A DNA stretch of 63,645 nt, filler included, from Conidiobolus incongruus B7586 (taxonomy: Eukaryota), in assembly GCA_000697335.1 (NCBI GenBank). It is 7 parts of 7 records of this genome, joined end to end, with 100 filler letters (N's around TTAATTAATTAA, not from the genome) between each part and the next. Parts side by side here need not be neighbours in the genome. Positions count along the whole stretch, not along the records: positions 26,513 to 32,767 come from JNEM01006527.1; 6 more parts are not named here. One strand, given 5' to 3'. The position numbers and the translations under genes were made by a program. The notes below the pieces were generated by a model. The model saw only the letters and a program-made list of their open reading frames with translations. It made no database searches and was not told the origin of the DNA. Within the stretch, counting starts at the first letter, position 1, and each line of letters begins with the position of its first letter. Below are positions 5,897 to 63,645 of the stretch, in pieces.

Positions 5897-7264
5897 TTAT
5901 GATGAGAGTTGAATGGGTGGTAATTGAGCTCCGAGTGGTCCAATCTCGGGATGATGACGATTCTTGTGGCGATTGAGACCACAGCGGTCTGCAAAGTGCT
6001 TGGGACAGTCTTTACCAGGGCATTGGAGTCGTTTGTTGCCATTCTCGTCGATAAATGTGACTACTGGAATCATACCTTTGTCGTTTGTCGTGGGTTTGGG
6101 TATTGTTAGAGCCTTGGGTGCAGGAATGGTGTGAGGTTGAACAGGTTTTGAAATATTTGTCTTACGATGGATTGCCGACACTGGTGGTTGAATGAATGAT
6201 GATTGGATCTTGCGATTGGATGCTAGAATTTGGTTAGTTTCAGGAATTACCAATTCGTTAGGTTTAAACTTACTAGGTCGCCAAACGTAGGCTACATTGC
6301 CTTGAAAGTTGCTGTCCTGAGGAGTGATCGATTCCAACTTCCACTTTCTGGGTTTCAAGTCTTTTTGTGCCATAATTCTGTGTAATGCCATCATATTCGC
6401 ATTTTTAACTAGTACCCTTTTGAAAAGTGGCTGAGGACCTTTCCTACGACCTATACAAAATGTTGATTAGTAATTGAAAATCATTTCAAAATTCTTAAAA
6501 TGTTAATATTGCAAATAAACGACCATAGTTTTGGATATAATAATTTGGACTTACTCTTTTTATGATATTTAGCTTTCCAAGCCATTGAACCTCGAATACT
6601 AAGTTAAAACAGTTAGAATAATAAAAATAAATAGCCAAAATTTATCAACTTACCCAAATACTGGCTGAGATTTGATCTCGATCTTGCGAGTTGGAATATG
6701 CTCTTGATCAATTGTATTTTGAGCGCTGGTAGGTTTGAGTACACTTCGTTTAGTGCCACGAAGTTTGCGCTTAGGGGGATACAACTTCTTAGCCAGCTGA
6801 ATTTGCGTAGGGGTAGGTGTTGTGGTGGTTGACACAGTTGCTTGTGATACTGGTGATGTCGAATCGGAAGAAAATGTAACAAATTTTTTGCGAGCTGCTT
6901 TAAGAAGTCGGGGTCGGTATGGAACATGTTGAGTAGCTGTAAATTGATCAGCGGAGTCATCATTGGAAGGTTCAGGTAATTCGGTTGGAGTAGTGGCTTC
7001 ATCAGGTGAACTAGAGAGGGGTGTAGGAGAAGTAATTGGGTGTTGAAATTCTTGCTCATGTGCAGAAGGACTAGAGTCGACAGAGGGATTGAGAAGATTA
7101 GTGAGCTTGGCAGGTGATATTATGGTTTTAGTAGGTTGAGCTGTATTGAGGTAGTCTGTATCAGGTGAGCGCTTAAGGGAAGTTGGTACGGTGGCGTGAG
7201 CTGGAGGGTTGGTCGTATTGAGACGAAGCTTCACAGGAGATTGAGTGTAAGAAGGAGATGACAT
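5897..7264 (-). CDS. C2H2 zinc-finger protein, paralogue B (4 exons), convergent with paralogue A
   Basis: Finger CPGKDCPKHFADRCGLNRHKNRHH; shared blocks KKLYPPKRKLRGTKRS, PVFGIRGS, RRKGPQPLFKRVLVKNANM; matching introns. Confidence 0.88.
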
Positions 7265-9015
7265 AAAATAAATAAAAATAAAGCGTAAAATTAAAGGTAG
7301 AGAATAGGAAGAAGAGAGTTAAGAAATAAACGAAGAAAAGAAGTGGAGGCTAAGATGAAGCTGAATGAGAATTTAGCATAATTGAAAGCGCACAATATAT
7401 GGATTCCAATTGGATTGGATTAGTTTGTGATAAGTTGGCAATTGAACGCTTGAGGGGGGAAATAATTGCATCAACTGTAACCCAATGATATGATGAGACA
7501 GGATGGGAGGATAAAAAAAGATCAATTCGCAATTGCCCACAATTCTAAGCCTGTATGAGGTGGGCTAATTGCGGTGGGTTCATTCCAAGCATGCAATATA
7601 TCCAGGCATCAGTATCATATTCAAGCTTAAAACCCTTTCTAACCCTATTCTTTGACCCATCTCTCAAATATACAACATATTTAATCACAGTACAAAGGTA
7701 CTCAATACATAATTTTATTCAATAAGACCTTATCCATCGCTGAATATTTCATAATTACCATGAATCAACCAGTTCGGAAATATATCAAACTTATTAAAAA
7801 TTCACAACTCCTCATCATTCAACTTTCAATTCCATTTCTATTAATCAATTTAAATACAAATAAAAATAAAAGAGTAAAATATGAAAAAAACACAATTCAT
7901 AAACTTATATATTACAAAAATGTTATATTACTATTCAATATCTCAACTTGCGTTTTTGCATTTCAAAAATCTCATTTTCCTAAAGTTTTCGAACCTTACA
8001 ATATTATTTTCAAAAATTTTTTACTTTAAAAATCATTAAGTTTGCGTTTTACTATATTGGGAAATTTACAGTATTGATAACACTTTCCTAATTTTATTCA
8101 GGCTAAATCTCTAATTGCATAAATTTGTTAGAATTGTTGAGATTGAATTAAAATGGCAAGTTGGGAGTTTTGTTAGATAATTGGAAGTGATTAGTGATCC
8201 ATTTAAAAGTATAATATAATTTGTACTGTGTTTAACGGTTATTAAATTAACTATTATTAAAGATAAGATGAATTTAATGAATATCTAATAATTATTAGCT
8301 GATTCACTTTGATCACAAGTTTTGAATAGTTGAAATAACGTAGTAACAAAGCATAAAATAACTATGCAAATAATTAGATATGAAATAAAGATATATACTC
8401 TAGCATTTTCATTTCAACGAATATTATCAATATAAAATATTTAACTATATTGAAAATATTTTGATAAAAATAATAATAAATTATTTTTGTTTTAAATTTT
8501 GATAACTTATTAAATTTAATCAATATTGGTAATTATAAGTTATGATTAAAGTTGGTATGACAAATAATTTGAAACATTTTTGAATTCTGAAATAAAATTA
8601 AATAACAAAATATTTTTTAAACATGATTATTTACAATATATGTGATTCTGTGATTATGTTAGATATTTCATTAATTTTTTATTAAAGTATTATAAATAAA
8701 ATACTGCTGTTTAAATATTCAAAGTAATAAAATAAGCAATAAATATTCCTAAAAATTCCAAATAAATCCTTTGTTATATATAAATTAAAATTCCCTTCCT
8801 AAAATTAAAAGATAAATAATTGTGGCAAAATATCAATAACATGTCAAATAATACCAAATTTAAAAAACCAATGATTAAATCAAAATTTGTATCAAAATGA
8901 ATCGCTTGCCAAATTTCATAGTGAAACTGAAATAGATATTTAAATGCAATGGTATCAATATTCATATAATCAACTATGTTGATTATATTTAAAACATACA
9001 TTTAATAGTATCTAT

Positions 9016-11711: not shown

Positions 11712-12149
11712 TGATAATGCTAACTGTTAAATATATTGTTTTAATCTTCAACTTCATTTGGCTTATTGGTTAATTTTATAAATTATATAAATAATACATC
11801 ACTCATTGTGCATGCTAATTGATTACACTATGTAACAGCAAAAAATCATTTCAACCCAAACTAAATTTTTATGAACAATTTAATGTTTGCTAGTTCTATA
11901 ATATTGTTGAAAAAAATTTAGCTTTAGTTTTCAAAATGTTTGGAAAATATATTACAGTAATGCTTAATTTGATGAAAATTACATAATTAAAACAAAATTA
12001 TTTGTATATTTTAATTAATTTAAATCAATACTGTATATAAATATATATTTTGGGATTTATTTACTAATAATCACTGATCAATATATAATTGAATATAACT
12101 TATAAACTGATCACACTAAACACTAATAGAAAAATCAATTAAATAATCA

Positions 12150-13300
12150 ATATTAGTGTAGAAATTAAGTAATGGAATAATTTTAAAATTAAAATTAAAT
12201 AAATTAATAAATAATATAAAATTAATAGTCTTTATTATTATTAATAACTTTTTTCTATACTTTTAGTAAGCTTCTAATATTTAAATAATAGTTTTTTTTA
12301 TTAAAGACTAAAATTTAATATTTTACAAATTAATTTAATTTATGGTAAATTTTTTTATAAGCTAATTTTTTAATTATTTAAATTAATTAACATTACATAA
12401 GTTATAATTAAGTGAGTATACTAGATATAATAATTCTCTTTAGTTTTTTATATAAAAATTTTTTTATAGCTTTAACTTTATATATTTTATAATTATTATA
12501 TAAAATAATAGCTATCTTTAATTTATATTAAGAATATTATTTAACAAATATTTTATTTAAAAAAATAATATATAATTTACTATTAATTAATTTTCCTTAA
12601 AATATTAAGAAAATTATATACCATTATAATTTATTACAATAATTAACATTTATTTATATTTAAAGTATTTATTTATTAAAATTTATAAAAGGGATTAATT
12701 TAACTTAATATTTTATTTTATTTTTAATTAAAGGATTATATAAAAAAATTTAAATTTATTAATTATAAATATCTATTATAAAAACTTTTGTTTTTAATTA
12801 TACTTTAATAAGTTTAATTTAACTATAGCTATTTTATTTTTTTTAAGCTTTTATTAAATGATAAGATATTTATTTTATATTTTTATTAATTAAACTAAGT
12901 TTAAACTTAAATAAATATAATATGCTTATATAATTAGTATTAAATTACTTTAATAATTCTTTAACTAAAATAAAAAAGGTATTTTTTAATATATATTCTT
13001 ATTTTATTAGTAAGTAAAAAAATAACAGTAGAAATTAATTTTTTAGATTTTAGTAAATTTTAAATAATGTCCCTTTTAACTTTAAAATCATAAAGCTAGT
13101 GATATATAGTAGTTTTAAATAAAATACCATCTTTATAAGTTATTTATAAGTTTTAAATGATTTTAAAGGGTTTATAGTTAAGTTTTAAAGATACAAAAAT
13201 AAAAATCTTTTGATAATCATTATTTAGTTTAAATATAATTAAATTGAAATATAAATTTTAAAATCAAAATATTTTAATAAAAAAAATAATTAAAATTCAA
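12150..13300 (-). mobile_element. Heavily mutated mariner-family DNA transposon relic
   Basis: Minus frame gives …YKDGILFKTTIYH*LYDFK…K*ISYHL, restorable by transitions to a Mos1-type HTH and WVPHEL-like motif; homologous (inverted) to 57600-57800. Ends approximate. Confidence 0.65.
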
Positions 13301-13984
13301 TATATATATATATATATATAGTTTGAAAATATTTATTTTCCTATATATTTTATATATAAATAATTCTTCAAAATGTATAATATGTTTGAAAGATCAGAAA
13401 TTAAAAAATTTGCCATTTTTTAATTTTTATACTAATACTTCAAATAAGCTAAAGGTTTGTTTATATAATTAACATTTAGTATAATTAATTCAGTATAAAT
13501 CATTAAAATATTCCAAATCATATTCAATATCAATATTAATAGAAATGATCTTCAAAACTTATAAAATATTTAATAATTTGATTAATTTTAAAATTTATTT
13601 ATTATTAAACAAAATGACTTAAGTTTTTCTCTTATAATAATTAAAATTTCTGAAATTAAATTCGATATCAATTTTTATAGTTATAATTCTAATAAAATCA
13701 CTTCAATTAGAAAATGAAATAATTTAATTTGTATATTTATATGTATATTTAGTTCCATCTAAAGGTATTAGATTTTAGATTTTTTATATGATTCTTAATT
13801 ATATATTTGTAATTGTTTGTCTTAAGTTAAAAAAATGCAAAATCCCAATATGCAAGATTTTCTCAGAGTGTATTAAAGCCAAGTGAATTTTATAATCATT
13901 GTAATAATATACTTATATATATATATTATAGTAATAAATTTTAATATTTGATATTTTCCTTAGTTTATGAAAAGGGTTTTTGAA

Positions 13985-15316
13985 AGACTTTGAGATAAAG
14001 GAGTTTTTTGCTAAAATATTAAAATATTTTTATAATAAAGTCTGTGGTTTATTGGACATAAATAATATATATAAATATTGCTATTTTGTTTCAAAGTCCT
14101 TAATTAAGAATATATACTGTTTTATATTTTTAAATTATTGATAAATTTGATCAAATATCTTTTCTCAAATATTATCAATTTTGAAATCAATCTTAAATAA
14201 TATTTACTATAATTTGGTGAAAAAAAAGTATATAAAAAGATTTTTCTTTTGAAAATTTATATTATTAGATAAATAAATTTAATTAAGGACAATATTTTGT
14301 TAACAATAGGTCTAGATCTGATTTCCAAAGAATAATTATTAATGAAAAGTTTAAAATATTCAAAGATATATAAAAAGTCATGCTTAATTTTCATTAAAAA
14401 AATATTCCTAGTAATTTATTTATTAATTATTCAATTTATACTATACCTTGAAATATGAGTTAGGATTAAAAAATTATCAAAATAATATCTTATGAATTGT
14501 CAATATATCAAAAAAATAAAGAGAAAATATAATAATTGAAAATATTGGCTAATATAGAGTATATCACAGATTAATATTATAATATATTGATATTGATATT
14601 GATTCAAATTGTTATTCAGTATATATACCATTATTTTATATGAAATCTAGATTATATGCTCAACTTGAAAGCCTAATTTTAATTTTTCTAGAGTCAAAAA
14701 TTTTATGGAAATTTTTGATCTTTATATATTTTGATGATATTTGCTTAAAATTATTATTACATTAAAACTCCATGAATTGTTTTAATATGTTTTTTGAGAG
14801 AAACTTAAGAAAATAGTGATCATTTCATCAAGTTCAAAGGTCTCCAAACATTCTTTATAATGCCAAACTCCATAAAATAAACATTGTCAAAAACCTTATT
14901 AAATCAAAAATATGAACTCTATTGCCACACCTACCATATTCTCCAGATAAAAATCCCTGTGATTTCAAGGGTTTTGGGCTATTCAAGGATCATTATATTA
15001 GAACGGTATTTAAATATCTCAATGATGTTATATAAAATTAAATAAGGCAATTGAATTGCGTAACTATCATGGGGTTTCTAATATGATTAGGTGATTTCCA
15101 TAAGTTTCAACGTGTATTATATTAAATAAATGAAACCATATATTTGGTTATATTATTGTGTTTGTTATTGTTATTTATTAAATTGATTTGAAAAAAAGAT
15201 AATTTTTTGACAAATTATTTCACAATTTAATATTTAAAATATAGTTATTTTAAAGCTAGTTATTATTTCAATAGCATATACTCAAAATTTATCAAAAACT
15301 CATCGGTTCAACCCTA
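13985..15316 (+). mobile_element. Degenerate mariner element (~1.3 kb)
   Basis: About 14850-15000 reads LYNAKLHK…LLPHLPYSPDKNPCDF (cf. HDNARPH…HPPYSPDLAPxD); weak inverted terminal similarity between ~13995-14025 and ~15275-15316. Confidence 0.7.
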
Positions 15317-15615
15317 TTTCATTATCAAACAAAGATAAGATGATCCGATTCCACAAACCCTTGAATCCAAATATCCATCCAAATACCTGTTTATTTAAAA
15401 TTACCTTGAGAAATTGTGAAAACATAGCATCAAGACAACTATGGCAACTTTGTAACTAAAAATTGTGAAAACTCAAGAGTGAAATATTGATCCTGAGTTA
15501 TCCATCCACAATAGTTTAATGACTGAATATAATTTGATAACTCCTACACTAACATCAAAATAATATGAGAAATTTTTGTTTGATTATAATTAAATCACAA
15601 ATTTATTTACTATTT

Positions 15616-26512: not shown

Positions 26513-26649
26513 CAAATTTATTTAATTTAATAATATAAAAATATATTTTAATAGATTTAATATAAAAATAAATATATTAAAAAAATTAAAAAATTACTTT
26601 ATAATTATTATATTATTATAATTTATAAATATAATAGTAAATTAATTAT
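26513..26649 (+). mobile_element. Tc1-like transposase relic, left part (interrupted by the Gypsy element)
   Basis: Joined to 32257 onward it reads KYNSKLIIV*R, restorable by transitions to KHGGGSIMVWG. Confidence 0.6.
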
Positions 26650-27023
26650 TATAAATATTATAATAATTGCTACTTAATTGATATTTTTCTTTACTCTAAT
26701 ACACTACTAAAGACCTAATTATTTAAATTAAACTTTATCAATATTTTACAAATCCCTACATCTGAGTAATTTTACTATTACTTAACCTTATATACTTATA
26801 TATATATATTCTACTTAACTATAAGAAAAACTTAAATTTTTCTCTCTAGCTGGGATTTTAACTTATATTACTTCTTACACAAATAAACCTTTTGCTTAAC
26901 TATTAATATATTTCTTATTATTATTAGTTAATACCTTAATATTAAAGGATTTATTTATTATATATTTCTTAAAGTATTAAAAAACTTGCTTCTTTTACCT
27001 TTAACTATTGTTATTTATTTATA
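26650..27023 (+). repeat. 5' LTR of the Gypsy element
   Basis: Colinear with 31878-32251 without indels; followed by a PBS-like TAATAGC (restorable to TGGTAGC). Confidence 0.9.
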
Positions 27024-30000
27024 TAATAGCAATAATTAAAAAAATTTAAAAGTACTCTTATTGCTATAGTTGAAGATTTTATAATTATAACTTATTATTC
27101 TATATATAACTAAAATAAAATAAACACTTAAAGTTTTAGTAATAATAATTATTATTCTATTAGTTAATAAGATTTCATTAATATTGATAGTATCTTTATT
27201 AAATATAGATTGAAATTAAAGTAAACTTAGTAAATTAACTATATACAATAAATAATAGCTGAATTAAATAGTTATAAAATTCTATTATTTATTTTAAAAA
27301 GCTTTAACAAAGTTGAGTTTTTTGTAAATAACTTAATTACTTATAATAGCTTAAAATCTCTTGAAAAACTAGAAGAATTTTTAAACAAACTAACTAAATT
27401 CTTTAAAGAAATCAAAACTCTAAATTTATATAATTTAGTAAAAATTTTAACTTTTAAATTAACCTCTTATGTTAAACTCTAGTAGTATATACACTTAAAA
27501 AACACACTTAATCTTACTAGTAGTTTTTTTCATCCTAATAAAATCTAAACATTTAACTAATTTAAATAAGCAATTAAATAAAGGTTTTACCTATTAAATA
27601 TAGTTATTCTAGTTTAAAATAAGCTAGCAAAGATTATTTAAAATCTTTAGTTAGAAATTTTATAAAAGAATTTACCTAGCTTAAATTAATGATTTTTAAA
27701 TTATCTAAAAGTGAAAAGAAAAATAAGTTTAAGAAAAAACTTAAGCTTAATATTTTTATAGTTGTCTACTCTAAGATTAATATAAAAACAGCTAGTTTTG
27801 CTATTTTAACTAAAATAGCTATTAAGATAAAAGATGATTAGAATTATATTAAAAAAATAAATAAGAGTTTTTATACAAACTTTAATAGTTCTTTATTTAA
27901 ATCATCTAATCCTAATATTATAAATATATCTGTGATATAGAAAAAAGAGTATCTAACTATAAAAAAAATTATACTTTAGAAAAAATAAAAAATACTTTTA
28001 TTATAAATAAATTAATATAGATTATCATTAGAATAAATATCTTAAGAAGTTATTTAATAGTAGATACTTTAGTAATATAGTTTTAAAAAATAATATTCAA
28101 GTAAATAATAAAAAAAGTAATTAACAGATTAATAATTAATTTAGTTTAAATTTAACCTAATGTGGTTAAAATAATAAAGAGAAATCTTTGTTAAAAATTC
28201 TTTATAATGAACATTTAAAATTATATTTAAATGATTAAAAATTATTTTAAAATTTTTTAGAGAAGAAGAGTAATATCTATTTAAACCTTGATTTATTAAA
28301 TTTTAATAAAAATAAATTATGTTCCTTGTAAATCTTTAAAGATATTTTAAATAAACACCTTATTTTTTTCTTATTTAACTTTAAATATAATAGTATACTT
28401 ATTAATAAAAATATTGTTAAGAGATTTAAACTATCTTATAATTAAATAAATATAATATTAAATTATACAAATAATACTTAATAAACTATTAAAAGATTTT
28501 TATATTGTAATATTTTATTAACAATAAGTTATTTTAAAAAAATCTAATTTATAATAAGTTTTATAAAATAAAACACTATTATAAGTTTTAGTTGGTTTTA
28601 AAAGTATTATCTAATTATCATAAATAAAAGTTTGTTTAATGAGTATATTTTTTTGTTTTACTATAATAATTTAAGTTATAAATTAATAACTAATTTTATT
28701 ATAGAAGAAGGTACTAATAATATTTTTTTTAATATTATAATAATTTCAAGAATATCTTTTGTAAATTTAATTAAGAAGTTAAAAAATTAATCTAATGTAA
28801 TTTATATCAACTTTAACACTATCTCTACTTTTTTAAAAAATCTAAAAGATGCTTTAAATATTAAAAATTTATTGTATAAGGTTATTAATAAATACAGAAA
28901 TATTTTTAAAATTTTAATTATTTTATCATTAAAAAAAATATATCCTATAAAATTAAACTATTATCTAACACTTAACTTTATCATAAATTACTTTATTATA
29001 TTTCTTTTAAATAGTGTAAAATTCTTTGTAAAGAAATAAATAAGCTATTAGAATTAAGTTTTATATAACTTTCTATAAACTTTTAAAGTTTGCTAGTTTT
29101 TTTTGTTAAAAAATTTAATAAAGGTTGGTGATTTTATATTGATAATAAAGTTTTTAATAGTAAAATAATTAAAGATAAAACTTTTTTACCTAATTTAAAT
29201 AAAATTAGAGATAGATTTATAAGTATAAACTACTTTACTAAAATAAATTTTAAGAATAGTTATTATAATATTTTAGTTGATAAATAATATATCTTTTTAA
29301 TTGCTTTTAATTATATATTAAAATATTATAAGTTTAAAGTTATAAATTTTAAACTTTATAACATACCTGCTATATTTATAAAACTTATAAATAGTTTATT
29401 TAGCAAGTATTATAATAATTTTATTTTGTGCTACTTAAATAATATTTTAGTGTATTCAAAAACTTTAGATGATTATATTTTATATATAGAGATTATCCTA
29501 CAGATATTTAGCTAAAATTAGTTGCTAGTAAAATTCTCTAAATATGTTTTTATTGCTTTATCTATTTTATTTTATAATTACATTATCTTTTCTAAAAGAA
29601 TTTTTATTTACTTAATAAAACTTTAAAAATTATATAATATTATAATCTTTGCTAATAAATATTAAGTAATAACTTTTCTAAAATTAGTTATATATTTTAA
29701 AAACTATATTCTTATATTTGTTAAGTTTATTAAATTTTATCTAACTTATTAAAAAAGGATAAACTATTTACTTAAACCTTTAATGAAATTTTTTCTTTTT
29801 ATATACTAATTTACAAAATTGCTAAAGCTTTAATATTTGCTATATTTAACCTTAAATTACTAATAATTATATTTATAAATGTGTCTATCTATACTATAAG
29901 TAATTAAATAGTATAAAGCAAAATTATTAAAGATTTTAAAATGTATAACTATTTTAAAACTTTAAAAAGGGTAATTAAACACTAAAAGGTTTTTAAATAT

Positions 30001-31877
30001 TTAAATTTAAAACCTTTAATATTTTCATTGAGAAAATTAATACCTATTAAACAAAATTATCATATACATAAGTAAAAAATGCTTACATTAGTAGAAATCA
30101 TAAAAAAGTTTAGTCTTTAGTTGTTTTATTAAGAGTTTTTATGCTTAATCAATAATAAATTATTAATTTACTTAAATTCACAAAGTATTATCTAAAAAAT
30201 AAATTAGATAGATAAAAACTATCCAAGAGTATTAATTCTTAATTAAATATTTTCTTAGTAAGTAAAATAAAGTTATAGATATATTGAGTAGAAACTTAAT
30301 TTATAAACTAGTATATAATAAATATAAAAAACTAATTAAAATTAGTTTAATAATTATTAACTTAAATAATAAAAACTTTAATCAGACTTTAAAAGAAAAA
30401 CTATAATATAATAACTTTTATTTGATAATTAAAGCTAAAATAGAAGAGAATAATAAGAAAAAACTTTCTAAATATAAAAGATTTTAAATATTAAATGGTT
30501 TGTTATATAAATATAATAAATTATATATTTTAAAAATCCTTAACCTCTAATTAATAATTTTAAAATAATATTATAATTATAAATTAAATAGACATTAAAG
30601 TTATATTTAACTTATTGATAAAATTCAAGTAAAATATTAAATACTAAAATTAATTAAGTTGGTAAGAAGTTACTACAAATTTTATAATAGTTGTTAAAAA
30701 AATAAGTATAATATAAAAGAAATAGTTGGTGAATTAAATTCTTTATCTTTATTATTTAAACCTTAAGCTTAAATACAACTCAACTTTATAAAAATACCTA
30801 AGTTAAAAAAGGGCTATGATAATATTTTAATAGTTGTTAATTTATACAATAGATTTACTTATTTTTTTATAAAATAGTTATAATGTTTAAAATAACTAAC
30901 TTGTTAATTAAGAAAGTAATTTTATTATATAAATTACCTATTACTATTATTACTAATAGAGATTTAAATTAACTTTAAAATTCTAGAAAACTTTTATATA
31001 ACATATAAATATTAATATAAAGCTTAATATCATTCACTATTATTAATTAAATAAATTAGTTAAAAAAGTTATTAAAGCTTTAAAAAAGATGGTTAGAAAT
31101 TATATTAACTTTAATTAAGATAATTAAGAATCTTTCTTACTTTATTTATAATTTACTTATAATAATTTAATTAATTAATTTAGTAATTTAACTCCTTATT
31201 TTATAAATTATAAATAATATCCTAACTTATTGATTAGTTTTAACTTAGATATTATTACTAATAAGTTTATTATGGATAAATTAGTAAGATTTAAATTAAT
31301 CCACCAAATAATTTTAGAATTAACTAAATTGAAACAAATATACATTGAAAATTATTATTTAAAATTCTATAAAACTCTATTTAAATATAAATCTAAGTCC
31401 CTAGTCTTTTTAAATACAATAGATATATTTTTCACCAAGTAAATATCTAGAAACAACATAAATCAAAAGCTTTTATTATGTTAGATTAAACTATTCTATA
31501 TTTTTAAAACAAGCTCTAAACTTAGAATTTTTAAATTAAAGTTATTAAAAACTTATAAATATTATTTAGTCTTTTATACCTTACTATTAAAAGTATACTA
31601 TTATCTCAAAAACAAGTTTCTTAATTAAAATTTTGAAGAACTTCTATTACCTATTATTAAAAATTAAGGGGATAAAGATATTATATTAATAAAATTTTTA
31701 CATATAAAATAAAATATAGAAAACTTTATTATTTTATAAAATGGTTAGGCTATCTTAATTTTAAGTTAATTTAAAAACCACTTGAAATAATTAAAGATAC
31801 TTATATTTATTTATCTTATATCAAAAAGATTAAAAAGAATAAAACCATATTAATAGCTTAATATAGTTTAAAAGGGG

Positions 31878-32251
31878 TATAAGTATTATAACAATTACTT
31901 TTTAATTAATACTTTTCCTTATTTTAATTTATTACTAAAAACTTAATTATCTAAATTAGATCTTATTAATATTTTATAAATCTTTATATCTAAGTAACCT
32001 TATTATTACTTAACCTTATATATTTATGTGTATATATTCTACTTATCTATAAAAAAGACTCAGATCTTTCTCTCTAGTTAAAACTTTAGCTTACATTACT
32101 TTTTACACAAATAAACCTTTTACCTAACTATTAATATATTTTCTATTATTATTAGTTAATATTTTAATACTAAAGGATTTAATTATCATATATTTCTTAA
32201 AATATTAAAAAACCTACTTCTTTTATCTTTAACTATTATTATTCACTTACA
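31878..32251 (+). repeat. 3' LTR of the Gypsy element
   Basis: Follows the PPT, ends in …TTACA, followed by TSD ATTAT. Confidence 0.9.
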
Positions 32252-32767
32252 ATTATAGTTTAAAGAAATATATTATCTTTAGATATAAAGTATTTTTATA
32301 AGGTTAATAGAAAAATTAATATTGAGATATTAAAATATTTTAAATAATAAATTAAAAAAATATTAAATAATATAAGCTAAGTAAATTAAATATAATTTTT
32401 TAGTAAAATAATACTTTTTTTTATATTATAAACTTTATTATCAAATGGCTTAAAAATAACAAAATAATTATTATAAAATAACCTTTTTAATTTTTTAATT
32501 TTAACTTAATTAAATATCTTAAAGATTAACCAAAAGAATTAATTAAATTAATTCCCCCTAATAAAAAATTTAAATTAATTTTAAAAATATATTTAAGAAG
32601 CAAAAATAATATTAATCTTATTTAATATAAAAATTTAATTAACTTTATACCTTATAAATATAAAGAGGTTAAAAAAGCAAAAAATAAATATATTCAATAT
32701 TAATTTTTCTATTATTATTAAAACTTATAAATTTTTAACTTATTTTAAATATATTTTTAATTTTATA
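32252..32767 (+). mobile_element. Tc1-like (DD34E) transposase relic, right part
   Basis: Homologous to the reverse complement of ~58830-59270 and ~62910-63250; restorable to FQQDN…H and WPPQSPD.NPIE motifs. Confidence 0.75.
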
Positions 32768-33645
32768 NNNNNNNNNNNNNNNNNNNNNNNNNNNNNNNNN
32801 NNNNNNNNNNNTTAATTAATTAANNNNNNNNNNNNNNNNNNNNNNNNNNNNNNNNNNNNNNNNNNNNTTTATTATTAATTAAATTTATTAAATATAAAAT
32901 AATAAATAACTTAATAATATACAATATTTAAAAATAATACAAATATTATCAAATAGACAAATCTATTTGGTTTTTAGTATTTTTTTTTTATAAATTTCAA
33001 TATATTTATACTAAATCATTATTAAATAATTAAAATTAATATTATAGATTAAATTTTATCCAATCAAAATTAATTTTAAATTTTTAAATTAAGCAAGTAT
33101 CTTATTTCAAACAATATATTTATTATTTACTTTTGAGATTTTTGATCCATTTGGGTAGAGGTTATAAATATTTATTTTTTTTAATAATTTAACCATTTCT
33201 GTTTAATCATAAAATATTTAACCTATTAACAGATAAAATTTTCATTTATTAAAAATATATAAATTAATTCATAATTTTAAATTCTTGTAGCTTAATCCTA
33301 AAACTTTTGATATTATCATCAGAGTTAACAATCTTGTTATTTTTATTTGATAGCTTTCAATCATGATATAACTAGAATTTTGCTTGTTAAACAGAAATAT
33401 AAACAAACTTTATTCTGTTAAAGTTCGATTATTAGCATTTATTTAAAAAATAGATGTATCAATCGATGATTTAACATCATTATATTCAAATAACTTGATT
33501 TTGTTATTTTTTTGTATCCTTAAAAATAATTAACATTTGACAGTGCATTATAAATTGTATTGATTAATACAATCAATTAAAGATAGGCATTTAGATTGAA
33601 TATTTATTTTAACTCTTATTTAATTGAATATAATAATTAATGAGA

Positions 33646-45227: not shown

Positions 45228-47257
45228 ATGTCTTCAACTCAAGAGCAACCCCTAAAAGAATTCAGCGAATTTCATTTAGATTTTCGATTGCTAAGAGCTA
45301 TTGCTAAAATGGGTATTACCAACCCTACAGAAATTCAAACTCAAGTGATTCCATTAGCTTTACAAGGCAAGGATATCTTAGCTAGAGCTAAGACGGGTAG
45401 TGGTAAAACTTTAGCTTATGGCGCTCCTATTATTCAGAGTATTTTGACTAAAACAGTAATTTAATATATTTTATTTAATATAAATTGTATGATATTAATG
45501 TTTATTTAGAGCAGCAAAAATGGAGAATCTAACAGTGGAATTCAAGCATTGATTTTGGTACCTACATCGGAGCTTAGTTTTCAAGTTGCTGACCATTTGA
45601 CCAAATTAACTCTGTACTGTCCAGAAATTAAAATAGTCAATGTTATTAGTAAAAATCAATTGGAAAATAAACAGAATAACAATCAGTTAGATCCTGCTAT
45701 TAAGTAAGTTTTATTATTAAAAGACAATTATTTTATGTAATATTAATTCAATTTGTATAGATCACAATTAAAAGAAATTCCTCATATTATTATTGGTACA
45801 CCAAGTAAAATTTTAGAATTGGTTAATTCAAAGGTAATTAAACATACAATATTATTATAATAATATATTTAACATTGTAATTTTAGATAATTGAAATTAA
45901 AACATCATTAACTCACTTGGCCATTGATGAAGCTGATTTGATCCTATCATTCGGTTATTTTGATGATCTTAAAAACTTAGTCCCTAATTTACCCAACCCT
46001 TGTCAAACCTATTTGATGAGTGCCACTCTTCCCCCTGATCTCAAAGAACTCAACTCCCTTATTCTCACTAACCCTGCCATTGTCCACCTCAAAGATTCTG
46101 AAGATCGCGGTCAATTGACAGAATACCAATTCCCATGTCAATCTGAAGATAAATACCTGTTGTTATATGTTATTCTTAAACTCAAATTAATCAAAGGGAG
46201 ATGTATCATATTCGTCAATTTAGTCGATAGAGCTTACCAAATCAAATTATTCTTAGAAAAATTCGGTATTAAAACCTGTATTTTAAATTCAGAATTACCT
46301 TTGAATTCAAGGTATCATATTATTCAAGAATTTAACAGGGGTAAATACGATTATATTATTGCTACTGATGAGTATAAGCCCAATACCAATACTCAAAATG
46401 AGCAAGCTAATGATACTGAAAATGATCAAACTAAAAATGATCAAGATGAAACTACTAAAGATGATGAATCTTCAGAATTGCCAAAAGTTGATGAAGTAGC
46501 TCCTAAAGGGGAAGAATCTGCAGAAGTCCTTAAAGATGTCAAGATCAAGAAGAATAAGAAGAATAAGAAGCCTCAATACGATGCTGTCACAGGAACTTAT
46601 GGTGTAAGTCGAGGTGTGGATTTCCAAAATGTTGCAGCTGTCATTAACTTTGACTTCCCTCCATCTGTCGAAAACTACACCCACAGAGTTGGTAGGACTG
46701 CTAGAGGTGGCAAGAAGGGTATGAGTTTATCACTCGTCGTCAACGACGATCCCGAAGAATTGATGTTAGCTGCTCAAGTTGAGCAAAGTCGTGAAAAGTT
46801 AGGCGCCAAGGTCCAACCCTTCAAATTCGATCTAAGTCAAATTGAAGGTTTCAGATATCGTGCTCACGACGCCTTGCGATCAGTCACCAAGACTCACGTA
46901 AAGGAAGCTCGATTAAACGAACTCAAAGAACAAATTTTGAATAGTGACAAACTCCAGGCACACTTCGAAGATCGTCCCCAAGACTTGGAATTCTTACGTC
47001 ACGATTTGCCTCTCCTACCCAAAACTGTACAAGCTCACTTGAAGCACGTGCCCCAATACCTTCTCCCCAAGATCCAAGAAGTGACATCGGAGGGAGCATC
47101 TTTGGGCAAGCGCTCCAACGATGATGCCACCTCGCTAGGACCCATCCAGTTCAACAACAAGCATTTCAAGAAGTACAAGCAGAATAGAGGTAAGAACAAG
47201 AAGCTGGACCCTCTCAAAACTTTTGCGAAGAAGATAAATAAGAAGGGCAGGAAATAG
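45228..47257 (+). CDS. DBP9: DEAD-box RNA helicase Dbp9/DDX56 (4 exons)
   Basis: [71 protein letters not shown]. Confidence 0.95.
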
Positions 47258-49455: not shown

Positions 49456-51173
49456 TTTTTCTTATATTTAATACAGATTCAATGAAAAATTATCTTACTT
49501 TGTGCAGTTAATAATTCTCATGCTAATAGCACATGTGCCCTTTTTATACTGCAAAATATTCATATGATGAGACGATTTCTGAAACCTTAATTAACTGAAT
49601 TCGCATTGATAGCATTAATAATAAATTTCATTTTATCACAACTGTCGATTTGTGTGTTTGAATGTCAAAATAAATCAAATTGAACTATTTAATTAAAATA
49701 ATTTTATATTACAATAATGTAATATAAATCCTAAAAAATAGTTCAATTTATTCAAATAAATTTGGATATATATATATATATTACAGATGACAACCCATAA
49801 CCTCTACGACTCTATTGTTTTGTACATACAATTATTAATATTAATTCTTATATGAAATCAAGTCAAAATCTATCAAAATATTTTAGTTTCTTCATAATAC
49901 AATTCTCTATTGCTTCCTATTTGCATCGGATTTGAGTCAAATTTTTATTTCCGAATTAAATTTCATTTTTTTTGATTCAAATTTTTATGTAAAGTTTGGA
50001 TAATTATAATTTCAAAATACTAAACTATTTGGTAGATTAATAAACAGTTTATTCAAATAATCAAGAAAAATTAGCTTGATGCATGCTTGTTTTGATAAAA
50101 TTTGTAAATATATATATAAATATTTAGATATAGACTGGAACAAGTATATTATGATAATGTTTTTGGATCATTTTTTGACATTCAATCCAAGGTTGATAAG
50201 TAATCGTTCATTATAATTTTAGAATTTTATATTATCTATGGAACAATATTTGCTCATTAATTGGTTATTGGAATATATTAATCATTACTAAAAACCAATA
50301 ATTACAATGCTTACTATTAATAATAGTAATAAGATCTATATATAATGATTAACAATTGACTTAATATATTGTAAATATATCTTAAAATGCTCCAAAAATA
50401 TAATATATATGTTATGAATGAATAATTTTGATTTCAAATCTTTAAAATAAATAAAATATAGAAAGTTCATTATACTCTAGTTAAAAAAATAATAGTATTT
50501 TGTATAATTAAATGATTTATAAGTTTGATTAAATATTAATCAATCAATAACTTTGTTTTTTTTATATTTATATTTAATATTAAAAAGTCTCTAAATATAC
50601 ATTAAAGTATAATGTTTATTAATTTGAATTTATAATATATAAAATATTTATTATTAAATTAATATATAATTTAAAATTATATTTAAAAAAATTTACTATA
50701 TAATAAATCAATAATAATTCTTTTTAAATAGAATTATTATTTAATTATAAAAAATCAAAATTATTTTAATTTATATCTCAACTATCTTATATATTAATAT
50801 TTTAATTGACTAAAAAAATATAATAATAAAACTAATATAATATAAATAAAAAATAAATCTATTATTTATATTGCAGGTTAATATATAAATAAACTAAGTT
50901 TTTTTAAGCTTTATAAATAAATAAATAAATTTAGATATATAAGATTATATATCAAATTATTTCAATATAGTATAATATTGATAAATACACTTTTGATCTT
51001 AAAATTGTTAATTATAATGAAAAATTAAATAAGAAAAAATAAGATATATAAATTTAACTTTTTTAAGAATTTANNNNNNNNNNNNNNNNNNNNNNNNNNN
51101 NNNNNNNNNNNNNNNNNTTAATTAATTAANNNNNNNNNNNNNNNNNNNNNNNNNNNNNNNNNNNNNNNNNNNN

Positions 51174-51445: not shown

Positions 51446-51488
51446 TATACTTGGTAATTACTAAGTGATACGGCGGTTTTATTATGTC

Positions 51489-51497
51489 ATCCCATAA
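51489..51497 (+). promoter_or_regulatory. ATCCCATAA promoter motif (p2-like)
   Basis: About 84 bp before ATG 51581. Confidence 0.65.
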
Positions 51498-51580
51498 GTT
51501 GTCGAATAAATCCTTTCCTCATAAAAAAAAAAAAAAGAAATATATGAATATTCAATACTAAAAAATAATAACAATAAAAT

Positions 51581-55289: not shown

Positions 55290-57480
55290 ATCTGTTCCTC
55301 CTCCAAATTGGGATCATTACAGTTTATCCTTATAGTTTTTATTAAATGGTACTGAAATGATCTTCCAATTCAATAAAATTATCATATATAGACTTTAGAG
55401 AATTCACGATCAATACAGTATTATACCATTCCCCTGCTAAATTGGGCATATATTGAATGAGAGTATTAAAATTATTGTGAATAATGACAAACAGGGCATT
55501 GAGTTTAGTAAACTATGAAATTTCTTTCATTTTTGTGGTAGGTAGAATTTGAATCATATTGAGCTAAATTGATCCCAAACTGTTGAAGAGTTCCACATTG
55601 AGATTGATTTTGGTTCGCGCCTTATTTAGCGTGGATTGGGGTTGGAAATCTTTAAACTTAGAGAATTGATAAACCTCTAGAAGTCTGATTATTTCTTTCC
55701 CAAATCCTAATATGCTTTGGATAAGTGGTCAAAGGTCCATGATGTCTAGGGTAGAACTATGATAAATACCATAATGATATACTTTCATACAAATTTCAAG
55801 CATCTTTTGGTGTAAGCTGAGTTGTAATCGATTGATGGATAGCTTTTGAATAATGTTGGGATCGAGATATACGGATTGGAATTTCACACCGGGTCCTAGG
55901 CATTCCTGCCACTTGCGGAACCTTTCTAAAATACCCAAACATGTTTGAACTTTGACAAGGGAAGGCTGGAAGCTCAAGTCTTGATCAATAATACCAAATG
56001 CAGGAATGACCATTCTTGCAAATTGGGTGCATGCTGCGAACAGTTGAAGATAATCTTGCGTAACGAACTCTTACAACGCTGAACTACAGCCTGATTGTCA
56101 AAGGGCTTACAAGTTGGAACACCCCAATCATCATCCGTCTTGATCATAGGGAGACTGTTCGTGACCTTGGTCATTTCCCAGTTCATGGTCCTTACTAACA
56201 CCCATAACTTTTTAATAGTTTGTTTCGATACATTCATAAAGTGATCGGACATAAAATCTTCGATCAATTCTTTTTTGCGAACTATTCTCAATGTATGAGC
56301 TAGTTTCACAGTGGTTGTTACTTTTCTAATTTTTCTTGGAATGGACGATTGCATGCTTGGTCAACGTCGCTTAATATTATTAATGCTTGAATTATATAAA
56401 TATAGTGATTGTTCAATTGGGAGCTCATTTGATACACATCCATCTTGTAATAGTAGTCGCTATAACTTACATTCTGCAAATAAAGCAGAGGAAGAGGCGA
56501 ATTCAACCAAGCGGGGCTGATAATTGCACTCTTCAAGTAATCAGGCAACGAGTTAGCAAAATTCTTAACACATCTGAAGAATTCGCCCTGATCCATGACT
56601 GGCGGAAACGTACAGCAAGGATGCAAAGTAAAATAAATCTATATCATATTTTTGGGATAGTCTTAATAATCCAAAACAATAACATTATCACTATACACCA
56701 CAATCTCGTCCTTATGGTTCCCATACTTCCACTTAGATTTGACCATTAAAATATATTGACTGTCTATTACTTTATTAACAGTTGGAAGTGTCTTACTCAA
56801 CGCTGCTTCGATAACGTTAACCTTCGATTAATTTTGCTAATGGATGTCCATTTGATGTACTATTCCTCATTGATTACATTGGAAATAGCATTGGAACAAT
56901 TGTGGTTTCTTGATTTAGATTTTTTTTAGCATTTTCTGTAGATTCATTATTGAATTTTAATGGAATTTCTCAATTATTATTGTAATTATTTAAAAATGAT
57001 TGAATAGTTGGAATAATACATGGGTTTATTCTCGTAGAAGGACTAGGGATGAAATATTTACTGTGGTAATAAGTATCATATGTTCAGTAATTATTGATAT
57101 ATTCAATATTTTCAGTTTTGATAGGGTTGGTCTGAGATTGCTGTTTTGAGTTAGAGATTAAATATACTCCCATTAATTCAGACTATACTATTATTGATAT
57201 TATCGTTTTATATTAAATATTGTTGTATTTTAAAACTAACCATCCACCCCAGTTTGATAGTTAAACCAATATTATTTTTTTAAGGTGATTTTGTCAGTCT
57301 ATAATTGAAGGATACTCTTTGTTCTCTTTGTTTTCTTTATTAGATTCTATCCAAATCCCATATCATTTATTGATTCAATTATTTAAACTAAACAGTGATA
57401 AAGATAGAGGAAGTTTTTCTTTTGGATATTCTGCTACAATGCCTCAATAATAAGTTTTCAAACCTACAGTCCTAATACAT
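55290..57480 (-). pseudogene. Frameshifted fungal transcription-factor gene (Zn2Cys6-family middle homology region-like)
   Basis: Consecutive overlapping minus-strand ORFs with frameshifts and stops; MI*IYFTLHPCCTFPPVMDQGEFF…YLKSAII…IIQALIILS resembles a fungal TF MHR. No intact Zn cluster seen; ends approximate. Confidence 0.5.
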
Positions 57481-58454
57481 TAAAGAGCAGGATTAATAAA
57501 TAATTTATAAATCATATTTTAAGTACTTTTCTAACTACAATCTTTATTTATAAAACTTAATATAAAAACACAACATTTATACTAAATATTATTGATAAAA
57601 AGTCTTTTAATATTACTAAAACTTAACCATAAACCTTTTAAAATCATTTAAGATTTAAAAATAGCTTATAAAGATAATATTTTATCTAAATTTACTATTT
57701 ATTGCTGGATATATCTCTTTAAAGCTAATAAGGTAATTATTTAATATTTATTTGAATTTAAAATATTAATTTTCATTGTTAATATTTTATTAATAAAAAA
57801 ATATATTGAAAAATATCATTAAATATCAATAAGAGAATTATTTAAATAATTTTATATTAATTATAAAATTATTTTATATATATTGATATTTTAACTTATA
57901 TTAGTTAATAATATATTAAATAAATACTTAATAATTTAACAAAGGCTAAAAAAATTGACAATAGCTATTGCTAAATATAAACTATTAAAATATTATTTAA
58001 TATAAAAGATTCTATATTATTATATTATAATTAATAAATATGTAATTCTTATATATATTCTATTATTTAAAAATATATAAAATATTGGTTTTTGCTCAAA
58101 TAACTTTTTATATTATTTTAAATAAATAAAGATTTAATTAATAATATAATATATATTATTATAATGAACTATAATATTATATATAATCTTTTTGCTTAGA
58201 TCTTAAAAGTGAATTAATTAATTTTAAAATTAATATTGATTTTTATAAATTATATTATCAAATTAAAATACATATTATAAATTAATTATATCTATTATTA
58301 TATACCTATATTATAAATCATTTAAAGCTAAACTTATAAAAAGTTGTCTAATTAAAATATAAAAACTAATATATCTTATATATTTACCAAATTATAACCT
58401 ATATAAATATAATTATTTTGAGTAATTAAAAAATATATTTATAAGCATAAAAAA
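57480..58454 (+). mobile_element. Heavily mutated mariner relic, same family as 12150-13300
   Basis: 57615-57720 aligns with the reverse complement of 13100-13190; Mos1-type HTH restorable; truncated by a gap. Confidence 0.65.
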
Positions 58455-58589
58455 NNNNNNNNNNNNNNNNNNNNNNNNNNNNNNNNNNNNNNNNNNNNTT
58501 AATTAATTAANNNNNNNNNNNNNNNNNNNNNNNNNNNNNNNNNNNNNNNNNNNNAAAGTATTAAATATCAGATTTTAATAAAAAAAACA

Positions 58590-59876
58590 ATATTAACTTA
58601 TAAAAATAATACATAAAATCAAAAACACTTATATTTTTACTAATAACTTGATTAATATTTAAAGAAATAAATTTAAATTAAATAATTAAAGTTTATTATA
58701 TTTATTAATAATATATATAATTAAATAATGGTATTTAGTTATTAATTGTTTAAAATATAAACTCTTAAATTTTATTTAAAATAAGTCATAAATTTGTAGG
58801 TTTTTGGTGATAAAAAAATTAAAACTTAATATATCTATTTTTAATTTTTTTAATTTCTTTAATTTTATAGGGTATAGAATCAATTAACTTTTTATATCAA
58901 GAAAAGTTAATTTTGTTCTATATTTCTTAAATATATTCTTAAAACTGATTTAAATTTTTTATAAGGGGGAAAATTTTAATAGTTTTTTTAACTAATCTTA
59001 AAGATATTTAATTGGGTTATAGTTAAAAAATTAAAAAAGCTATTTTATAACTATTATTTTATTATTTTTAAACTATTTGGTAGTAATAGCTATAATATAG
59101 TAAAAGATATTATTTTGTTGGAAAATAATATTAGATTTGTTTAATCTATATTATTTAATAATTTTTTTAATTTATTATTTAAAATATTTTAATATATTTT
59201 AATATTAATTCCATTATTAACTTTATAAAGATATTTTATATTTAAAGACAATATATATTTTTAAACAATAAATAACCTATCATTATATTTTTAAATAAAA
59301 TTAATATAATGTTTATAAAGTAGTTTTATATCTTTTTTAAAGTATCTAGCTTTTTTATCAAATTTACTAAAGTATATTTTTATTTCATTAAATTAAATAA
59401 CCTTACTCTAATTAATTTTAGTTCAATATTAGTAGTGACATTTAAACTCTTACCTAGCTTTATAATGGGATTTTTTTAGTTAGGGGTGTTTTTTCTTAAA
59501 ATATAAGTGGTATCTATGCTAATGTAAAATATATATAATAATATCAGTGCTAACTAATATTCTTATATAGTTTTATAGTTCTTGCTATATTTCTACAATA
59601 ATATTATATTTACCTATATTAATTAACCTATAGATATACTTCTTATCATATTCATCTATAATTTTAACACACTTAAATTTAAGTTTAAATGTTTTTTTAT
59701 TACTATTCTTAATAGCTTTAGCTATAGTAAACTAGCTAACACTAGTAATTCTAACAATATTATAAGGTAATTTACCTTCTTTATAAAGTTGATTAATATA
59801 CAAGTAGATTTTTTTAGAGAGGGATTTAGGTATATTAATACTAATAAAAAAAATTTAGTATATCTGTAAAATATAA
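58590..59876 (-). mobile_element. Tc1-like element with eroded near-full-length transposase and one long TIR (~58590-58815)
   Basis: N-terminus mirrors 60166-60315; C-terminus restorable to FQQDN…WPPQSPDCNPIEHLW; TIR homologous to 59879-60105. Confidence 0.8.
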
Positions 59877-59878
59877 TA

Positions 59879-60315
59879 CACTAACCTGCAAAAGTGAGTC
59901 ATAAAATCAAAAATATATATATTTTAATTAATAATTAAAACAATTGTATATATTAGATTACTTGAAACTATAATATATAATTAAGGTATATTATTTAATA
60001 ATAGATAAATATATTTAGATATATTTAGTAAACTATTAGCAAAAATATTAACTCTTAATATTTAACCAAGGTGAGTTATAAATTTGTGGGTTTTTGAGAT
60101 AAGGGGATATATTTAACAATATATAACCATATCTTTTTTCTCTCTTTGTTATTATTTTATATAATATTTTACAGATATACTAAATTCTTTTTATTAGTAT
60201 CATTATGCCTAAATCCCTCTCTAAAAAAATCCACTTGCACATCAATCAACTTTGTAAAGAAGGTAAATCAACTCATGATATTGCTAGAATTACTGGTGTT
60301 AGCTAGTCTACTGTA
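59879..60315 (+). mobile_element. Left end of a second Tc1-like copy (TIR plus transposase start at 60205), inserted at TA
   Basis: TA|CACTAACCTGCAAAAG terminus; MPKSLSKKIHLHINQLCKEGKSTHDIARITGVS*STV is a Tc1-type HTH; cut by a gap. Confidence 0.8.
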
Positions 60316-60415: not shown

Positions 60416-60573
60416 GGTACAAAGCCCCATTTACAAGTGATCAAGGCCGAATAGCCAGAGATCTGATCATTGGTAGTTTACCCCAGCTGGTAGGTATCAT
60501 GTTTCACAATCTGGCCTACAGAATGGCTGTGTCAGTGTCCTCAATGACGCTCCAAGAGCTAATAACCGTGACA
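60416..60573 (+). mobile_element. LTR-like cassette A (3' part only, cut by a gap), ends CCGTGACA
   Basis: Homologous to cassettes B and D in opposite orientation; followed by GTACA. Confidence 0.7.
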
Positions 60574-60578
60574 GTACA

Positions 60579-61111
60579 TGTCGCTGTTATTAGCTCTTGG
60601 AGCGTCATCGATGATACTGATACAGCCATGGTGTAGGCTAAATTGTGGAGCATTGTGCCTACAAACTGAGGTATGTTATTGATGATCAGTTCTCTGGCCA
60701 TCCGTCCATGATTAGCATTGAATGGAACATTAAAGAGGGAGACTAGATCAGCAGCAACAGTGGCAGTATGAGGGGTTGACATGCTAAGGCAGCAGGTCAC
60801 AGAATATCAGTGGGAATGGATGTAGAACGATTAGTGGGGTAGATCTCAAATAAGCTTTATGTGGCTCTTTGAGTGCGCTCGGAAAAACGGGGTTTTTAGA
60901 GTAGAAAAATATGATTTATTTGTAGAATAGCGTTGAGAGAGGTCTCTGTAGAATTGAGGGAGCAATATTGGTATAAGTAGGTCATGATAGATTAGGAACA
61001 TGATTATAAGAACACATTTGGTTCTCGGAGCATGTGGAAGTTGGGAAATCTCGGGGTTTTGGTAGTGATGTATGAGGGAGAGAAGGTGTCAATAATATAG
61101 CAATTGTCACA
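60579..61111 (-). mobile_element. LTR-like cassette B (533 bp)
   Basis: TG…CA termini (minus strand TGTGACAATTG…CAGCGACA), flanked by GTACA at 60574-60578 and 61112-61116. Confidence 0.8.
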
Positions 61112-61116
61112 GTACA

Positions 61117-61423: not shown

Positions 61424-61428
61424 ATATA

Positions 61429-62466: not shown

Positions 62467-62828
62467 TCACTGAAGTGTTCTTCCTTCAGAAATTTTCTTA
62501 ATTTTGAGTCGTTTCAACTTCCTCGAAATTTGATTCTGACTCAAGTTCAATTTCTTGGATAATTGGACTGTACTGAGATTGGGAAGCCCTTTCACAGCCT
62601 TGATCAATTCATCATCTGAGACCTCCCTAGTCACTACCCTCTCATTAAATTTATCATACAAACTCCTGTCATCACTGATAAGCCATTTATATCAGTAATA
62701 AACAATACCAATTTTTAGAGAATCTTTGCCATATAAGGTACAAAGTTGATTGTGAGCTTCTTTCACTGTCACATTACTGTTGAATAGGAATAGTAAAGTA
62801 CTTCGATTGCAAATTTGTCTAACTCCAT
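62467..62828 (-). pseudogene. Short Mos1/mariner HTH-only gene, disrupted
   Basis: RSTLLFLFNSNVTVKEAHNQLCTLYGKD…VYY*YKW…SLYDK…VSDDELIKAV…LSTVQLSKKLNLSQNQISRKLK; frameshift near the ATG and a TGG>TGA stop. Confidence 0.75.
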
Positions 62829-62879
62829 TATTTTGATTATTTAATAATTTAAGCTTTATTGAAGAATTTTGTGGATGAA

Positions 62880-63645
62880 TTTAAATTTTGATTTGAAAAC
62901 TGAGGAAAAGATTTTTAAATATATTCTTAAAATTGATTTAAATCTTTTATTACAGGAAAAACTTTAATAGCTTTTTTCAACTAATTTTAAAGATATTTAA
63001 TTAAAATATGGTTAAAAAATTAAAGAAGCTATTTTAAACTATTATCTTATTATTCTTAAGTTATTTAATAATAGAAATAATAATAATTTAAGAGGTATTA
63101 TCTTATTAAAATATTATTTTATTTTTTAACTTATATTAGTCAATAGTTTTTCTTAATTTATTATTTAAAATAATTTGATATATCTCAATATTAATTTTTT
63201 TATTAACTTTATAAAAACATATTATATTTAAAGATAATTTATATTTTTAAATTTAAATAATATAATGGTCTTAAAATAATTTTATATTTTTTAAAAATAT
63301 TTAATTTTTTATATTATCCTAATATTAAAAACTAGAGTAGTTATTATGTTTTTAAAAACCCTTATTATTTAAATTAAAGAAAAAACTATTTTTATTAATA
63401 TAAGATTTATGATGATATAAACTAAATAGATTAAAAATTAATTATAAAAGAGTTTAGATAAAATACAAAAATATATCATGTAATTAAATCAATATATGAC
63501 ATTTTTTAATTAAATTTATTAAAATATATTTCTATTGTATTAAATTAAATAATTATATTTTGGTTAATTTTAATTTAATTTTAATAGCAATATTTAAATT
63601 TTTACTTAAGTTTCAATAATTTTTCTTTAATTAAAGGTTTTTTTT
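62880..63645 (-). mobile_element. Tc1-like transposase relic running off the window end
   Basis: 62915-63250 is homologous to 58930-59265. Confidence 0.7.

Follow-up and report, generated by a model that had tools for sequence, protein, structure and literature searches.

C-to-T mutation of transposons and other repeats, resembling repeat-induced point mutation, in DNA of a likely Entomophthoromycotina fungus

Repeat-induced point mutation, known as RIP, is regarded as an invention of the Dikarya, mainly of the Pezizomycotina, and a decayed retrotransposon in an assembly labelled Conidiobolus incongruus B7586 (GCA_000697335.1) raises the question of whether repeated DNA can be mutated in a similar way outside that group. 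The window, by which we mean the whole 63,645-nucleotide stretch of DNA analysed here, is made of seven pieces joined via 100-base N spacers, and the retrotransposon, a Ty3 element, lies on a piece of its own at 26513-32767 (JNEM01006527.1). We found change from C:G to T:A on both strands in at least two classes of element (a retrotransposon and a DNA transposon), as well as in a further pair of repeats, S1 and S2. Our explanation, held with middling confidence, is that a methyltransferase-linked, repeat-directed C-to-T mutator would be working like RIP in what is likely an Entomophthoromycotina host. The stretch offers alignment-level, polarised evidence with controls inside the same window, and lets two questions be put to the test: what enzyme is responsible for mutating repeats where no RID is known, and whether sex is required.

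The long terminal repeats (LTRs) of a retrotransposon are identical at insertion, owing to the mechanism by which they are replicated. The two LTRs of the element (26650-27023 and 31878-32251) align without gaps and differ in 62 of 374 columns, 39 of them C/T, 19 G/A and four A/T, which confirms the first-pass annotation of this DNA, where dozens of C/T and G/A sites and about four A/T transversions had been noted by eye. Both copies have lost C and G relative to each other, as had also been claimed (19 C and 7 G in the 5' LTR, 20 C and 12 G in the 3' LTR). The ratio of transitions to transversions (Ts:Tv), 58:4, compares with 98:50 in a diverged GC-rich duplicate of the same stretch (Fisher p=1e-5), 24:14 in a hairpin pair (p=3e-4) and 150:166 in paralogous zinc-finger genes (p=7e-13). 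Per copy, the fraction lost was 0.83 for CpA, 0.38 for CpT and 0.33 for CpC (p=0.002), and loss relative to the transversion rate was about 330-fold at CpA (95% range 129-1216) and 75-90-fold at CpT/CpC. The base 5' of the lost C made for losses of 0.42 (ApC), 0.60 (CpC), 0.33 (GpC) and 0.46 (TpC), that is, no preference for TpC. Dating by LTR divergence misleads here, with 16.6% divergence overall and about 1% by transversions.

The element is the dead relic of a Ty3 chromovirus that had inserted into a Tc1-like transposon (Table 1), a classification that follows from its collinearity with an intact relative that itself has the reverse transcriptase (RT), RNase H, integrase and chromodomain. 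An exhaustive protein search with the RT relic as query gave P0135 as the lone outlier, at 46% identity against 35% for the next hit; a word-based search with the same query returned 3 distant hits only. The cluster mate of P0135, the metagenome protein P0277 (1158 aa), carries all four domains, and its collinearity with the element extends from the protease side through the final pol residues. The Chromo match (E=3e-10) is to P0277, a Pfam search on the corresponding relic (31679-31879) gave no hit, and neither did one of the gag region (27024-28415). With Ty3/gypsy chromoviruses the element shares LTRs, a 5-bp duplication, a polypurine tract and the order RT-RNase H-integrase-chromodomain; it differs in that its full-region relatives, save P0135 and P0277, reach at most about 39% identity (among the 120 best hits). 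Canonical LTR ends are TG and CA, of which the terminal CA of the 3' LTR is retained. Within the RT relic, YLNN stands at 29432-29443 where P0277 has YLDD, the substitution that had been recognised at first pass.

Comparison with P0277 gives the changes a direction. Among 1146 aligned codons, 438 are identical and 708 differ; C>T or G>A alone explains 337 of the differing codons and the reverse change 27, while 200 shuffles gave means of 102 (maximum 128) and 8 (maximum 17), respectively. For the counts of context, 850 of the 1146 codons were kept and 296 in poorly matching windows were dropped. Loss affected C before a purine at 171 of 197 sites (87%) and C before a pyrimidine at 122 of 248 (49%; p=1.5e-17); where the codon admits CpA alone (Gln/His, Met, Trp and Cys), the site was lost in 54 of 65 cases, and where it admits CpT/CpC alone, in 48 of 100. 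These P0277-based figures are possibly inflated by natural divergence, and the LTR pair is nonetheless in agreement with them.

No CpG is left in the element (about 30 expected), and CpA+TpG stands at 0.53 of expectation. Decay of 5-methylcytosine (5mC) at CpG only is ruled out as an explanation because CpA is depleted and not enriched, the opposite of what such decay leaves behind, and the claim that the changes go beyond it holds. The order of loss, CpG (about 100%), CpA (about 85%) and CpT/CpC (about 35-50%), is close to that of ascomycete RIP with CpG loss added. The first-pass annotation had proposed a repeat-directed C-to-T mutator with relaxed context: the direction (337 against 27) and the confinement to repeats stand, and the broad contexts that it listed (GGGA/AAAA, CC/TT, CT/TT) are present, but the context is graded rather than relaxed. 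It looks flat because of saturation, CpG and CpA having mostly been lost from both copies so that the differences seen fall at slower contexts; 39 of the 58 visible LTR differences are at CpT/CpC, and the sites surviving in both copies number 2 for CpA against 33 for CpT/CpC.

This pattern overlaps in part with several described systems. RIP in Neurospora crassa and other Pezizomycotina (with RID/Masc1 and DIM-2) likewise changes C:G to T:A only, on both strands and in repeats only; here, by contrast, the host is non-Dikarya by DBP9, and the loss of CpG is complete and seems to have come first. A preference for CpA with CpT in second place is shared with Botrytis, Sclerotinia and Magnaporthe (PMC4352252), and the composite RIP index here is 0.80. 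Tuber melanosporum shows a two-tier loss of CpG and CpA in transposons (PMC4352252), but that fungus belongs to the ascomycetes and has RID and Dim-2 genes, and CpT/CpC are also 35-50% lost in our case. The Dim2-dependent mitotic mutator of Zymoseptoria tritici, linked to a methyltransferase, causes C>T in transposons and prefers CpA; over 98% of its C>T changes are at CA and CG is spared (PMC8016269), whereas CG is wiped out here and CT/CC heavily hit. A Dim2-like vegetative mutator would suit a largely asexual fungus. TpCpG/CpG hypermutation in the basidiomycete Microbotryum is a case of CpG loss in non-ascomycete transposons (PMC4352252), confined to CpG, unlike the loss at CpA of 54 of 65 never-CpG sites in our element.

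The same signature is found in the Tc1-like copies E1 to E4. Compared with E1, E2 gives 15 changes in the forward direction and 1 in reverse, with loss of 12 of 17 CpA, 3 of 21 CpT and 0 of 6 CpC and with CpG in neither copy, and this pair displays an early phase of the mutation process. The intervals 59723-59907 and 60131-60315 were also considered as inverted ends of one element, a candidate rejected on translation, which gave two inverted transposase starts. The intervals 58579-58806 and 59867-60096, each about 230 bp long, form direct repeats (66%) and are probably long terminal repeats of two opposed Tc1-like copies. For S1 and S2, none of 12 frames matched Pfam (0/6 for S1). Transversions amount to 133 in 927 columns for the S1/S2 pair, to about 5% for the Tc1 pairs and to 1% for the LTRs, levels which suggest that the process may have acted over a long span.

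The genes and the diverged duplicates are free of the signature. All 11 of the 64 one-kb windows with a positive composite RIP index lie over repeats, and a model with two states, for which the element served as training set, marked 4 segments, 17% of the stretch, all of them repeats and none (0) in the listed gene open reading frames. Adjacent single-copy genes had been described as untouched at first pass; they are indeed spared under this model, but lie across N spacers and are not contiguous with the element. Relative to unique DNA, 5 of 5 other repeat copies were CpA-poor (p 7e-4 to 1e-9), as against 0 of 8 AT-rich controls with significant CpA depletion, one of which was CpA-rich at p=0.04; the nearest to CpA-poor was 50400-51073 (p=0.075), an AT-rich contig end (10% GC) that is without CpG and borderline in CpA depletion, and may be an older island. 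Ts:Tv is about 2 in the duplicates at 60416-62010 and about 1 in the zinc-finger paralogues, and the context spectrum is flat in both, the pairwise context fractions being limited to 0.5 by construction and used for comparing contexts only. Recognition by RIP has an identity threshold of about 80%; the duplicates, at 71-75% identity, and the old paralogues are spared in their present state, which may differ from that of the young copies. The duplicates are three diverged copies of a 41% GC unit without a Pfam match, one of them inverted so as to form a hairpin at 60427-60725. The mariner-like fragment is truncated directly by E4, its frame nearly open and unmutated, with the edge of the signature within about 50 bases.

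The host was placed by means of the last exon of DBP9. Among the named hits the best belong to Zoopagomycota, at 47-51%, plus one partial at 61%, and no named hit within the best 120 is an ascomycete. In a maximum-likelihood tree of the exon and 33 of the 120 hits, DBP9 and P0001 together are sister to Neoconidiobolus, Entomophthora and Massospora (support 99/94; 94 in a quick tree). Such a phylogeny had been proposed as the check on taxonomy in the first-pass annotation, and its outcome agrees with the non-Dikarya host suspected there. The genes of the window are likely those of an Entomophthoromycotina host, zygomycete-grade and akin to the Entomophthorales, which kill insects, and the DBP9 placement points to a Conidiobolus-grade fungus. 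Exact matches to window proteins in the protein collection numbered 0 of 5, an atlas search with SCP2 reached the family level only and gave no useful taxonomy, and DNA loci encoding P0277 or a close relative of DBP9 were not found in metagenome contigs or viral contigs.

If a mutator is responsible, copies of similar sequence would be recognised and a DNMT1-family enzyme would mark or directly deaminate their cytosines, favouring C before a purine; repeated rounds would remove CpG, then CpA and then CpT/CpC, yielding TAA/TAG stops and the change of YLDD to YLNN. The Ty3 element and the genes would belong to one genome. An active mutator would agree with how large the excess is and with the CpA preference and sharp edges, and it would have forerunners in RIP and in the Dim2-dependent mutator that acts in vegetative growth of Zymoseptoria (PMC8016269). 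By this analogy the process would work like RIP; we do not class it as RIP. Several observations weigh against this explanation. The Ts:Tv of E2/E1 alone is not significantly different from the control (p=0.19), and strand-coordinated runs are not evident by eye in the LTR pair. The piece with the Ty3 element has no host gene, P0277 is a metagenome protein without an assigned host, and the taxonomy comes from a single gene on a long branch, in a tree without ascomycete rows. The element's words (40-44%) occur in 4 of 7 listed sequencing runs, all from one sample, and next to none of them in the other three (X5-X7; from two separate studies that bear the same species label), a result that is weak because a few percent of divergence abolishes most 31-mers. 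Lastly, 8 of 8 Zoopagomycota were scored no_rip in a published kingdom-wide screen (PMC12543289, supplement file 12).

The best-surviving rival, which we consider possible if doubtful, is passive decay, in which dense CG and non-CG methylation of transposons (DNMT1-type), spontaneous deamination of 5mC and poor T:G repair would suffice without any mutator or pairing. Unrepaired deamination could in principle exceed transversions 100-fold or more. The graded order of contexts fits passive decay too, as does the fact that CpG was lost first and fully even in the lightly mutated E2 (0 against 2.9 expected), where CpA is mostly retained, a state that fits graded methylation and passive deamination. 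Ordinary decay of CpG is likely to occur here alongside the RIP-like tier, since the unit at 60416-62010 has an observed-to-expected (o/e) CpG ratio of 0.39 and raised CpA/TpG, and proteins with a DNA_methylase domain are encoded in Entomophthorales (PMC11105155). Passive decay would, however, demand near-complete methylation of CpA and heavy methylation of CpT/CpC, when fungal non-CG methylation is usually low, 0-5% genome-wide (PMC7862722), and fungi whose enzymes are all of the Masc2 type show CpG-only signatures (PMC4352252). The unmutated state of the mariner-like fragment abutting E4 also speaks against it.

It seems improbable that the mutated elements are foreign DNA, derived from a contaminating ascomycete or from chimeric joins in the assembly, and bear the marks of ordinary RIP. 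The isolation of the Ty3 element on its own piece, a spectrum like that of ascomycete RIP and the restriction of the element to the runs of one sample, whose assemblies are about three times the size of those from the studies of X5-X7, would all be expected of a contaminant. However, the signature is present on three further pieces and there meets host-type or unmutated DNA at four gapless junctions: both sides of S1, which has host genes to either side within an unbroken contig, one side of S2, which ends a host-gene contig, and E4. The Tc1 family into which the element inserted is likewise found on two other pieces. Moreover, P0277 has an amino-acid make-up more AT-coded (2.21) than 119 of 119 other Ty3 hits examined and resembling that of host-lineage proteins, and those few of its neighbours that bear names are algae, an arthropod and one bacterium-labelled record, with 0 ascomycetes among the matches listed. 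An APOBEC-like deaminase acting on reverse-transcription intermediates, or a general AT drift of the genome, is scarcely credible and largely refuted by the Tc1 copies: editing of such intermediates is excluded because both strands and DNA transposons are hit and there is no 5' TpC bias, and drift, although the genome is AT-rich overall, is at odds with the CpA retained in AT-rich unique DNA and with diverged duplicates of flat context spectrum and Ts:Tv of about 2.

RIP in Entomophthorales has been suggested from indices alone and with stated caveats (PMC11105155); RIP outside the Dikarya is already in print as a suggestion, and ours is not the first sighting, although firm demonstration has so far come from ascomycete moulds only. 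The signal reported there (24.2% in Zoophthora radicans) concerns the same order by DBP9 and Ty3-rich repeats. It differs from ours in resting on window dinucleotide indices, as opposed to polarised alignment counts with internal controls, and our lineage branches outside Neoconidiobolus, Entomophthora and Massospora. In the excerpts of a screen of 1,239 genomes, RIP signatures are reported for ascomycetes only, and the 22 rows examined out of 30 for Mucoromycota are all no_rip (PMC12543289). CpA/CpT signatures have been tied to RID and CpG-only ones to Masc2 (PMC4352252), RID is documented in Pezizomycotina only, as far as the excerpted text goes (PMC5751038), and background on the methyltransferases is given in PMC7862722 and PMC13297926. 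Our search of the literature, with subscription papers outside its coverage and files 13-19 of PMC12543289 excluded, found no alignment-based report of RIP for Zoopagomycota, only the index-based one of PMC11105155. As a tentative extension, which we think rather unlikely to hold, Zoopagomycota could have a RID-free, homology-sensing defence of RIP type, and C-to-T mutagenesis of repeats could be ancestral to terrestrial fungi or have arisen separately by way of a DNMT1-family enzyme, perhaps with no need of meiosis.

Table 1. Positions of the features in the window.
Feature	Position	Strand	Remarks
Repeat S1, CpG-free, CpA-poor island	12116..13309	.	within unbroken host-gene contig
Tc1-like copy E3, left half	26513..26649	+	2% GC; split by Ty3 element; aligns to 59267-59400 inverted
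Target-site duplication, left (ATTAT, 5-bp)	26645..26649	+	
5' LTR, 374 bp	26650..27023	+	starts TA, finishes TA
Probable gag region	27024..28415	+	many stops; by position only
N-terminal pol (protease side)	28416..28913	+	aligned to P0277 residues 1-166
Reverse transcriptase relic	28934..29710	+	RVT_1 E=7.5e-6; P0277 174-432 at 44% identity
RNase H relic	29737..30183	+	RT_RNaseH E=6.5e-4; P0277 alignment
Integrase relic (zinc finger, core, SH3), three frames	30188..31709	+	P0277 alignment and domains of P0277
Chromodomain relic and pol end	31679..31879	+	aligned to P0277 1093-1158
Polypurine tract	31870..31877	+	precedes 3' LTR
3' LTR, 374 bp	31878..32251	+	terminal CA retained
Target-site duplication, right (ATTAT, 5-bp)	32252..32256	+	
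Tc1-like copy E3, right half	32252..32757	+	aligns to 58767-59271 inverted, 70 Ts + 25 Tv
DBP9 last exon, taxonomic marker	45887..47257	+	other piece than the element
Repeat S2, inverted relative of S1	57388..58444	.	at end of host-gene contig
Tc1-like copy E1, heavily mutated transposase	58579..59880	-	HTH_Tnp_Tc3_2 E=4e-4, under curated cut-off
Tc1-like copy E2, 5' end only, lightly mutated	60131..60315	+	one in-frame stop
Control: diverged GC-rich duplicates, 71-75% identity	60416..62010	.	without signature
Control: mariner-like HTH_48 fragment	62500..62900	-	HTH_48 E=1.8e-5; normal CpA/CpT
Tc1-like copy E4	62912..63645	-	contiguous with unmutated mariner-like fragment
Segments of the two-state model	12116-13207, 26554-32910, 57388-60054, 62900-63637		match repeat edges

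Some minor features of the window were also recorded. The zinc-finger paralogues are convergent genes at 3987-5334 (+) and 5897-7318 (-) that end in a zinc-finger-like motif and are diverged, not hypermutated. The region 13400-15500 is CpG-poor (o/e 0.29) and not CpA-poor, and at 14700-15100 (+) there is a translated stretch, without a Pfam hit, which we take to resemble the Tc1/mariner catalytic motif. The spacers at 19583, 26413, 32768, 51074, 58455 and 60316 are identical 100-base runs of N with an all-frame stop motif in the centre. A 57-bp repeat at 93% identity is shared by two pieces (206-262 and 51474-51529) and is possibly a small RNA gene.

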